Part shown: positions 5,480 to 24,354 of the stretch, piece after piece | Numbering within the stretch: position 1 is the stretch's first letter | Layout: each line of letters starts with the position of its first letter | Assembly (NCBI GenBank): GCA_951406725.2 | Contig: OX597839.1 | Coordinates: forward strand, 22,878,001 to 22,942,000 | From: Octopus vulgaris | Lineage: Eukaryota | Direction of reading: 5' to 3' | Length of the DNA: 64,000 nucleotides | Notes under the pieces: generated by a model | Databases searched by the model: none | What the model was told of the DNA's origin: nothing | Seen by the model: the letters and a program-made list of their open reading frames with translations, nothing else | Position numbers and translations under genes: made by a program

Positions 5480-5827
5480 CAGGTGTAGATGACCCCCAGC
5501 AGCATAGATGCCAGGACCCCTGGACTGGAGATACGTAGAAAGCACTATCCGAATCGTGGCCGAAGCCAGTGCCGCCTCGACTGGCTTCCGTGCAGGTGGC
5601 ACGTAAAATGCACCAATCCGACCGTGGCCGATGCCAGCCTCACCTGGCACCAGTGCAGGTGGCACGTAAAAAGCACCAACTACACTCACGGAGTGGTTGG
5701 CGTTAGGAAGGGCATCCAGCTGTAGAAACATTGCCAGATAAGACCGGAGCCTGGTGCAGCCTTCTGGCTTCCCAGATCCCCGGTCGAACCGTCCAACCCA
5801 TGCTAGCATGGAGAACGGACGTTAAAC

Positions 5828-5858
<31 letters not shown>
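5480..5858 (+). mobile_element. RTE LINE 3' UTR (5'-truncated) with (GAT)n tail
   Basis: Same sequence as the UTR that follows the RTE ORF remnant at 31225-31710; ends CCATGCTAGCATGG...AAAC(GAT)n. Confidence 0.8.
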
Positions 5859-6618
5859 TAAAGGACTGGAGCAAATGCAGCAAGACATTTTATTTGACAA
5901 TTTCTTACATTGGTAGGGAGGGTCACATATTTGTAGGGGGAGGGGTAGGAGCAGAGTTAAATGAATTGAACCCCACCACCATCACATCACTGGTAACCAT
6001 GTTATCAACATTCACCAGTGGACACCTGTCTGGGTCCAATCTCAACTTTCCCCTACAATGACTCAAACATCAATTTGAAGAAAAATAAAACCCCTTTTTT
6101 GTTTCCACTCTATTAACAGAAAGGAATATGTTGGATGGGTATACATGCACTTATATACATGTTTTATGCATATCATCATAATCATCATCATTTAACATCC
6201 GTTTTTTCATGCTGGCATGGGTTAGACTGTTTGCTAGGAGGTGCCCTGGTTCCAATTCTCTGCTCTGGTATGGTTCCTACAACTGGAAGCCCTTCCTAAC
6301 ACCAACCACTTTACAGAGAATACTGGGTGCTTTTTACGTGGCACCAGCAACAGAAGGGTCTTCAAGAAGCTTGCAAGATGAAATCCCATCAATGGTTGCG
6401 AAATGGGGAATTGTATTAAGGGAGGTGGCTTTGTACCAGTTGAGGAGAGGTTAAATGAATAATAGGGAGATAGAGAGATAGGTGGCGATAAAAGGATACC
6501 TGAGTTGGAAAAGAAAGGAGTGGAAAAGAGAATTAAAGAGAAAGATAGAAACACAGTTATAGAGAACACACACACACACACACATTATCTAAAAGGTACA
6601 GTATTAAATATCCATCAT

Positions 6619-6710
6619 GGCTGGTCTTACTAATCAGTTTCATGCAAAGAATACAATGGAGTGTTAGGTAACAATCCAATTATATAACTTTATGCTCATC
6701 AGAGTTAGCC
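6619..6710 (-). ncRNA. Type I hammerhead ribozyme motif (left arm of palindrome)
   Basis: Minus strand: GGCT-AACT-CTGATGA-GCATAAAG...CTTTGCAT-GAAAC-TGATTA-GTA-AGACC-AGCC. Core intact; stem II has two mismatches near the core. Confidence 0.7.
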
Positions 6711-6741
6711 AATATGGAAGGGATATATTCCCTTCTATATT

Positions 6742-6833
6742 GGCTAACTCTGATGAGTGTAAAGTTATATAATCGGTTTGTTACCTAACACTCCATTGTA
6801 TTCTTTACATGAAACCAATTGCTAAGGTGAGCC
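6742..6833 (+). ncRNA. Type I hammerhead ribozyme motif (right arm of palindrome)
   Basis: GGCT-AACT-CTGATGA(6750-6756)-GTGTAAAG...CTTTACAT-GAAAC(6811-6815)-CAATTG-CTA-AGGTG-AGCC. 8-bp stem II; stem III closing pair mutated. Confidence 0.7.
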
Positions 6834-6943
6834 ATGATGGATATTCAATACTATACATTTTGGATAATATAACCACTCTACTGACAGATATATGAGTGCA
6901 TCTTTTCCCTGATTTATAGTCTCTTAGACAATTCATGCATGTG

Positions 6944-6984
<41 letters not shown>

Positions 6985-7106
6985 CATTTATATTTCCTGA
7001 GCGCCATACTAATACAATTGTTTGTTTGTATTCCACCTGCCTTCGTCTTTTGTTTATTTCCGTAAACCTGCCTTTGTCTTTTGTCTATTTTCATAAAGCT
7101 TACCGT

Positions 7107-7140
<34 letters not shown>

Positions 7141-7148
7141 TATATACC

Positions 7149-7368
7149 CAGGGTGGTGCAAAAGTAGGTATACAGTTTTGAAAATAGAAAACATGTACAA
7201 TACTTATTTATTTTTATCGAAAAAATTAAAAGTTAGCCTCATTTGTGATATTTTCAGTGTCAATCATAATAATACATTTATCGTAACTTTTAACATTTTT
7301 TCATAAAAATAAATGAGTATTGTATGAGTTTTCATTTTTTTCTGTATACCTACTTTTGCACACCACTA
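7149..7368. mobile_element. Tc1/mariner-type MITE
   Basis: TIRs GTGCAAAAGTAGGTATACAG / CTGTATACCTACTTTTGCAC, sitting in TA-rich context. Confidence 0.8.
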
Positions 7369-7500
7369 TATATATAACACACACATGCACACACACACAC
7401 ATATTATTCATGTGGTGATAATTGTGTAGTCCCCACCACTAGATAGAACTGTTTAGGTGCCATATATACATACACACATACATATGTTTTATATATATAT

Positions 7501-7537
<37 letters not shown>

Positions 7538-7633
7538 CATATATATTATTGAATTATCAATAATTCTACAATCCCATGGTATCTTACATGTAATGTATGT
7601 ATATATACATACATACCTATGTACATACATATA

Positions 7634-7673
<40 letters not shown>

Positions 7674-8002
7674 CATACACACACATCATATGAACACCCC
7701 TACCCAATATTATAATTGTTAACATGCAATATCTACATATATGCACACACACCCACACGCATATACATCACATCACACACACACACACACACACTACATA
7801 ATAATTGCTAACATGCAATAATGTTGTTCCAATGTAAAGAATGTTCCGAGTTCGTCCGAGTTTTTTTTTTTTTTCCAATTTCGTTGATTCCTTCCTATAA
7901 GACTGCAGTATTTGAAGTGCGAAGAATTATTAACAATGGGCGTTATAAGATTAAAAATAATGAGTGTTTTTGATCTAAGGAATTAAATTTTCTTCCATGT
8001 GT

Positions 8003-11180: not shown

Positions 11181-11842
11181 CTCACTCATTTGGGAGATGA
11201 CCTTTAAATTTAGAACTCACACAGAGTACCAAAATCTGTCCAACTGACTTGGAAAGTGGACAGAAAAATGACATTAAGGTCTTGCTTGGATTAACACCAC
11301 CACATCAACTATAGAACTCAACATTTTAGAATTTAAGTCACCTAAGTCTACAGGGAACACCTCTGTCATGAGTATCTGAGCAAGAGAGTAACTTAGTGTT
11401 ATATTTTGGGATAAGTCTGTTTTCATTTTTTTTTTAATTGTCAAATAGACACGTACTGTATATTTGCTTTTTACTTACAGAACAGGAAGAGACACATGGG
11501 GGTGAGAGTTGCTGAAGAGGTCACAGAAAGGGTGATGAAAGATTTTCAGACAAAGGACATGAAATAAGAGCACTAATAAAATAAATTTGAAGATCGAGTA
11601 TTTAGTCCGTGTGCTTATTTGGCCAAAAAAAAAAAAGACCAAAAATGACAATCCGAAAATAAAACAATATCTGTTTCAGCCCACGGTTTCACATCAGGAA
11701 TTTTGCAACACAAATTCATAAACGTGATAACTTATTTCCTACTTTTTATCAATTTTTTAGAAGCTGTGAATTGGAAATGTGGAAAAAGAAGAAACAAACG
11801 GAAACATTCACACAACACTTAATAAATAAGAAGATCCCTTAC

Positions 11843-24086: not shown

Positions 24087-24314
24087 TTATGCAGAGTCTG
24101 ACCACCTCTTATATACCTTAGATCCATTGTGGCATCTGATGTGCCTTTTTAAACCAGACAACGTTCTGAAAAGATACCCACATAGATTGCATATCTGATT
24201 TGGACCACCAAGAGCTGCAGATAAGTTCTGATCTTTGTGGATCTTAAAATGTCTTTTGAGGCCTCCTTTAGACTTACAGACCTTCTGCCATACATGGCAT
24301 TGTAAGGTGTGCAC
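24087..24314 (-). pseudogene. Two C2H2 zinc-finger-like motifs, probably a LINE ORF C-terminal remnant
   Basis: CHVWQKVCKSKGGLKRHFKIH (second Cys replaced by Trp) and CNLCGYLFRTLSGLKRHIRCH; no TGEKP linker. Confidence 0.55.
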
Positions 24315-24354
24315 AGATAGATAGGCAGAATAGTTGGTGGAGGTTCATTTTCCA

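Follow-up and report, generated by a model that had tools for sequence, protein, structure and literature searches.

Insertions of EN+ Penelope-like elements (PLEs) are described, in the parts of PMC8557442 that deal with insertion structure, as comprising an inverted, 5'-truncated partner and a one-sided tail of 30-40 bp, with a bias towards microsatellites. Head-to-head palindromic junctions are recorded in the corresponding part of PMC3846280, where they are read as the outcome of self-priming, and truncated PLEs carry pairs of hammerhead motifs located 100-700 bp apart on opposite strands (hammerhead section of PMC4209133). The PLE tail is defined by two RT start sites (PMC11167929, relevant section). 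The hammerheads of PLEs cut as dimers via a palindromic helix III (PMC4209133; review PMC6765202, both as to this motif). In the Hydra clade, the hammerheads have a 10-nt helix III and the elements have (TA)n targets, and Penelope-13_HM combines a G-U pair at the base of helix II with an inverted copy, so that a hammerhead is present on both strands (entries in the supplement of PMC8557442). The named hammerhead descriptors in the main text of that work have spacings of 7-17 and 35-50 nt. The inverted PLE arrangement itself is, thus, already described in print.

Here, we analyze a locus of this appearance within a window (the whole 64-kb stretch of DNA that was analyzed) that consists of AT-rich, microsatellite-rich animal DNA, the short repeats of which appear similar to those of octopus genomes. 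With good confidence, we interpret the palindrome at this locus as two head-to-head copies of the hammerhead-bearing end of a many-copy repeat, likely, a single old and inert Penelope-like insertion. The locus is organized as follows:

6566..6583, no strand: (AC)9 microsatellite adjoining the outer end of the left arm
6584..6723, minus strand: left arm, an inverted, 5'-truncated copy of the 3' end of the repeat, without the tail
6619..6710, minus strand: left type I hammerhead, with CUGAUGA at 6702-6696, GAAA at 6641-6638 and the triplet GUA at 6630-6628
6724..6728, no strand: head-to-head junction, in which ATAT (6725-6728) is self-complementary family sequence
6725..6868, plus strand: right arm, a 5'-truncated copy of the 3' end of the repeat, matching the family from 6725
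6742..6833, plus strand: right type I hammerhead, with CUGAUGA at 6750-6756, GAAA at 6811-6814 and the triplet CUA at 6822-6824
6757..6810, plus strand: helix II region of 54 nt, an 8-bp stem with a predicted irregular hairpin extension
6869..6929, plus strand: one-sided 3' extension (tail), common to other copies of the family
6940..6982, no strand: (TG)3 followed by a (TA)n microsatellite, just past the tail

The sequence-only reading that drew attention to this locus had described a 285-bp palindrome at 6584..6868, and the inverted repeat has exactly this form, with arms at 6584-6723 and 6729-6868 that are 88% complementary and are separated by a 5-nt spacer. This is the extent of the palindrome only and not the length of the element, the right side of which runs to at least about 6929; a single loose-end line, judged by eye, suggests that the tail may end at about 6941. 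The arms are identical at 123 of 140 bases, and 13 of the 17 differences are transitions; a CpG context is visible from both arms at 6 of the 17. These differences, mostly transitions, led us to reject an assembly artefact, as did junctions of the same type in three independent DNA runs, where none of the pieces listed spans the exact locus. Microsatellites flank the locus on both sides, (TA)n also follows the ends of the family in other copies, and the (AC)9 tract is likely part of the insertion target. No target-site duplication is readable within the microsatellite flanks.

Each arm contains one type I hammerhead, as proposed from the sequence, on the minus strand in the left arm and on the plus strand in the right arm. 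The cores point outward, and in each arm the boxes CUGANGA, GAAA and NUH follow one another in type I order. Helix I consists of 2 bp followed by an internal loop, a GGCU/AGCC closure, also correctly anticipated, and a further extension. The 54-nt helix II is longer than the spacing that standard descriptors allow. The predicted GUA cleavage triplet is present in the left arm only, the right arm having CUA in its place. The two copies are indeed damaged in different helices: in the right arm, all 8 pairs of helix II are formed and helix III retains 4 of 5 pairs, with a C-C mismatch beside the core, at 15.2/16.2 in the conventional hammerhead numbering; in the left arm, helix III is complete (5/5) and 6 of the first 8 pairs of helix II are formed, with two mismatches near the base. 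Helix III of the left arm is self-complementary and is predicted to form a 10-bp dimer duplex (-9.2 kcal/mol). One helix is, thus, broken in each arm, and the free fold of neither arm is the ribozyme fold.

A lenient core descriptor, written after the target was known, detected 5 distinct cores in the 64-kb window, compared to a mean of 0.13 per window in a control of 30 block-shuffled windows. A search with the Rfam hammerhead models, which had been suggested as a check of the initial reading, turned out negative, with no match at the gathering score across the whole window and none at E up to 10 either on 5500-8000 or on the right arm alone. The Rfam models appear to be insensitive to such forms because they also miss a short, typical hammerhead elsewhere in the window. 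This second type I hammerhead (34529-34495, minus strand) is unrelated in sequence and lies between (TA)n tracts; it has a short helix II, a self-complementary helix III, a 4-bp helix I and a GUA triplet, and resembles a solitary remnant of a different PLE family. A weak third hammerhead-like core (3310-3234, minus strand), with 6 of 8 helix II pairs and an AUA triplet, may be a chance match or a decayed copy, and the fifth descriptor match, at 11512 on the plus strand, forms 2 of 4 pairs.

To characterize the repeat beyond the window, contigs from 4 of the 24 listed public runs were aligned to positions 6380-6935 (556 bases) at 80% likeness. Three of these are DNA runs, X1, X3 and X11, from organisms A, B and C, respectively, and the fourth was guessed to be an RNA run; of the variants and loose ends found, only the best-supported rows were considered (40 of 137 and 24 of 890, respectively). 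Altogether, 1806 (X1), 2057 (X3) and 1964 (X11) contigs aligned, counts that include those of a different repeat at about 6399-6455. The segment 6399-6455 is a fragment of this other high-copy repeat and is bordered in all four runs by shared flanks of its own. Summed depth is higher over the arms than over the unique flank by a factor of hundreds to more than a thousand; a summed depth is not a copy number, so we speak only of many copies. The arm is a dispersed, many-copy repeat in the DNA of three organisms. BLAST of either arm found no other copies in the 64-kb window, and the upstream motif of the family, allowing up to 3 mismatches, likewise has no other copy there. Two patterns searched against metagenome contigs produced 0 matches. 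An 18-mer searched against viral contigs produced 3 matches that we take as chance, two of them consisting of the 18-mer only and the third extending over 40 bases at 82.5% but without the core.

In X11, loose ends accumulate at 6871 (24 contigs, continuing into (TA)n) and at 6928 (21 contigs, with a few letters and then (TA)n), that is, the family has two 3' ends about 58 nt apart, at about 6871 and about 6929. Because the family match reaches about 6929 on the right and stops on the left at the equivalent of 6868, the right arm is a tailed copy and the left arm a tailless one. At the opposite end, one shared upstream sequence is attached at 6725 on 43, 53 and 42 contigs of X1, X3 and X11, respectively, and its mirror is attached at 6723 on 26, 38 and 36 contigs. 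Thirty letters of this upstream family sequence are visible, and it is lost at the present locus. Most copies continue beyond the palindrome centre in the upstream direction, and the depth across the centre amounts to 1.3-2.4% of the depth at 6736; the share of copies with the present centre may exceed 2% because contig assembly under-represents near-perfect palindromes.

The sequence-only reading had asked whether the inverted dimer recurs. It does, head-to-head junctions being present at many points in all three DNA runs. Joints of the left to the right arm account for 7 of the 15 best among 49 joints, and 6 of these 7 lie at points other than the present centre; in a further listing, 10 of the 12 rows are of this kind. 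One joint, from 6684 to 6769, falls within one base of mirror symmetry at a self-complementary 8-mer (6765-6772); its shorter side comprises 25 letters, and it is a weak fit to fold-back at palindromic words. At the present junction, ATAT is located immediately beyond the extended helix I, at a distance of 25 nt upstream of the core, and the T at 6724 is one extra base relative to the perfect palindrome found in other contigs.

In other copies, the helix pairs that are disrupted at this locus are retained. Letters at the helix positions were compiled with depth weighting over the three DNA runs; the copies are unphased and were assigned to the better-fitting arm. The 6763/6804 pair, which is outside a CpG context, is A-U in both arms at this locus and G-C in other copies, where G6763 reaches 43-73% (left arm) and 24-60% (right arm) and C6804 reaches 55-59%. 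The A6763-U6804 pair common to both arms suggests that a single template gave rise to both. C6758 is found at 32-48% with G6809 at 52-61%, and C6810 at 48-62%; in helix III, the other copies have C6816 at 49-57%, G6817 at 54-62%, G6821 at 86-92% and G6822 at 82-86%. Several of these variant letters can also be explained by CpG decay. Pairing letters for helices II and III in other copies, including one two-sided change, back a parent with a structured ribozyme. The palindromic stem III that had been reconstructed for the parent is backed by other copies at 7 of 8 places; the exception is 6820, where both arms have T and where C is absent among the best 40 of 137 variant rows. The accompanying assumption of CpG decay throughout stem III fails at 6822, where the C is a transversion. 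The arms are identical at all 13 core places and differ at 7 of 36 places in the helices and at 10 of 91 places elsewhere (Fisher p 0.59 for core plus helices); an unchanged core would arise by chance with p 0.19, so there is a little scope for selection. Accordingly, the arm differences give no sign of selection on the ribozyme at this locus, in a comparison of little power, and both ribozyme copies appear to have been damaged by neutral decay.

When folded computationally, the 285-nt RNA forms a single hairpin (-185.6 kcal/mol, z -26.8), and none of 200 shuffled sequences is as stable; the hairpin is favoured over the forced ribozyme fold by 93.1 and 97.7 kcal/mol. In a read-through RNA of either strand, the antisense arm is made before the ribozyme arm, and, as the transcript grows, the core box is predicted to pair with the antisense arm with a probability of 0.94 at a length of 173 nt and of 1.0 once 200 nt have been made. 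Given that the ribozymes are on opposite strands, there can be no helix III dimer in cis and no transcript with two sense copies. According to these predictions, the hairpin trap would be avoided only if transcription began at the centre, and the ribozyme in such a transcript would be a damaged one. We therefore expect no ribozyme activity from this locus and, should it be transcribed, passive dsRNA from the 140-bp hairpin. The putative RNA run yielded 138 contigs with family copies, and the centre is crossed by 0 of the 8 pieces listed; A>G and T>C counts are 22 and 28 in this run against 18-21 and 17-20 in the DNA runs, a difference that is not readable as editing. We considered and rejected a miRNA precursor because the match to MIR781 scores 50.2 bits against a gathering score of 88, as expected of a generic hairpin.

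These results bear directly on the suggestion, made in the initial reading, that a transcript would fold either as the hairpin or as the ribozyme. In its strongest form, this would make the locus a regulatory switch maintained by selection, with a dsRNA hairpin and an active ribozyme as its alternative states, a reading that we consider extremely improbable: the core boxes are intact in both arms, and long hairpins are ADAR substrates, with heavy editing reported for Penelope repeats of lizards (PMC5625713, editing data), but the hairpin is far more stable and is predicted to form before the ribozyme is complete, such that the either/or choice finds no support, each ribozyme has a broken helix, and the helices carry as many differences as the rest of the arms. 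That the whole palindrome is a small, non-autonomous, MITE-like fold-back element copied as a unit is also quite improbable. Among 32 contig pieces listed, 5, spread over all three DNA runs, cross at or near the present centre, and a perfect centre one base shorter is found in one X1 contig, two X3 contigs and two X11 contigs, as might be expected of such a unit. However, centre crossings make up only about 2% of the depth at the arm edge (a share measured in assemblies biased against palindromes), the crossing pieces differ in their gap letters (4, 13, 4, 13 and 7), most junctions lie elsewhere, and the tail is one-sided.

An unlikely, although more substantial, alternative is that the family is a non-LTR retrozyme, that is, a non-coding tandem monomer moved by PLE enzymes, with the locus representing an inverted pair of partial monomers. 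The type I hammerhead with a palindromic helix III and an extended helix I and the failure to find a coding frame are compatible with this possibility; such families are known in molluscs (PMC7229834, mollusc families), and their derivation from PLE ends has been proposed (bioRxiv 10.64898/2026.07.22.740005, in its discussion of origins). Against it, there is no head-to-tail tandem copy at the locus or elsewhere in the window, the copies terminate at one or the other of two fixed 3' ends, beyond which there is (TA)n, and contigs listed extend 548 and 619 letters upstream of the match. A further, rather doubtful possibility is that the junction has been rebuilt repeatedly at ATAT, which would then be a hot spot for fold-back priming during second-strand synthesis by PLEs or the centre of a palindromic mini-element.

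We favour an origin from a Penelope-like insertion. The family displays four features of EN+ PLE insertions, namely, dispersed 5'-truncated copies, an inverted head-to-head partner joined at variable points, an optional tail at one end and a type I hammerhead in the terminal repeat. The earlier attribution of type I hammerheads with a self-complementary helix III to a PLE end with an inverted partner agrees with the pertinent parts of PMC8557442, PMC3846280 and PMC4209133. A link of the repeat to a Penelope RT or GIY-YIG frame, which had also been envisaged, was not found in the 186 frames of the window, none of which has an RT or GIY-YIG Pfam match, so membership in the PLEs is inferred. A 48-residue frame across the right arm and the tail was rejected as a coding link: its 3 weak matches (E 1.6e-6 to 6.5e-4) are to repetitive proteins without RT or GIY-YIG domains. 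The sole Pfam match among the 186 frames is a weak C2H2 zinc-finger match at 24090-24344 on the minus strand (E 5e-05, below the curated cut-off).

Under the Penelope-like interpretation, the PLE reverse transcriptase and endonuclease, encoded elsewhere, would have acted in trans, and roughly the last 200 bases of the RNA would have been copied into a microsatellite tract of (CA)n/(TG)n/(TA)n. The mirror arm would have arisen during insertion, most likely when the self-complementary ATAT (6725-6728) folded back and served as a primer. In an active parent element, sense copies arranged in tandem would pair with each other via the palindromic helix III and cleave as a dimer. Afterwards, both copies presumably decayed neutrally, and any read-through RNA would form the 140-bp hairpin that traps the core.

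As one decayed copy among many, the single locus carries little weight. The family is a modest addition to the known diversity, a high-copy, hammerhead-bearing repeat of the PLE type. Because its 54-nt helix II escapes Rfam and exceeds the published descriptor spacings, hammerhead screens likely undercount these motifs in animal genomes. The way in which PLEs build inverted ends could be examined with the many head-to-head junctions of the family. Should ATAT prove to be a hot spot, the self-priming model of PLE inversion would become testable by junction counts, and thousands of hammerhead copies with the long helix II, from several related species, could serve this test. Stumps such as 6584..6868 would also be ready-made long dsRNA if transcribed.

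The family and its 54-nt helix II were not found described in the literature searched, a search that did not extend to Repbase and Dfam. Among octopus PLE consensus sequences in the supplement of PMC8557442, Hydra-1_Obim, Naiad_Obim and Naiad_Ovul resemble the present family in their (TA)n targets, and Hydra-1_Obim also carries a hammerhead of type I. The first 35 bases of Hydra-1_Obim share, as judged by eye, about 16 letters with the tail at 6901-6917, a likeness that offers a lead to the Hydra clade. In contrast, the 3' ends given there for Hydra-1_Obim and Naiad_Obim are not the present sequence, and four 10-11-letter motifs of the family have no match in the PLE consensus files, where line breaks can hide a match. 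An origin from a Naiad 'half-core' was considered, given that an octopus Naiad with half a core is flagged in the same supplement, and was rejected, the four family motifs not being found there.

The animal non-LTR retrozymes, as portrayed in the respective parts of PMC7229834 and bioRxiv 10.64898/2026.07.22.740005, share with the present family a non-coding repeat, a type I hammerhead and kinship to PLE ends. Theirs, however, are head-to-tail arrays that give rise to circular RNA, whereas this locus is arranged head to head and cannot yield a sense dimer. With the PLE hammerheads, including the opposite-strand pairs of Schistosoma mansoni (PMC4209133, hammerhead section) and Penelope-13_HM, the locus shares the CUGAUGA/GAAA core, motifs on both strands, a 10-nt self-complementary helix III and an 8-bp helix II with G-C or G-U at its base. 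It differs from them in the 54 nt between the core boxes, the published PLE motifs in the sources considered being mostly much shorter and the two 'deviating' plant PLE-X motifs having loops of about 30-35 nt, and in helix I, which has 2 proximal pairs and an internal loop here, and in the lack of an Rfam match. Compared with the EN+ PLE insertions as depicted in PMC8557442 and PMC3846280, both partners here are only about 140-200 bases long and lack a coding part, and the tail, at about 58-70 nt, exceeds the 30-40 nt given in those descriptions. Shared with them are inverted head-to-head ends, variable 5' truncation, a one-sided tail, a probable microsatellite target, a palindromic junction and a type I hammerhead near the 3' end.
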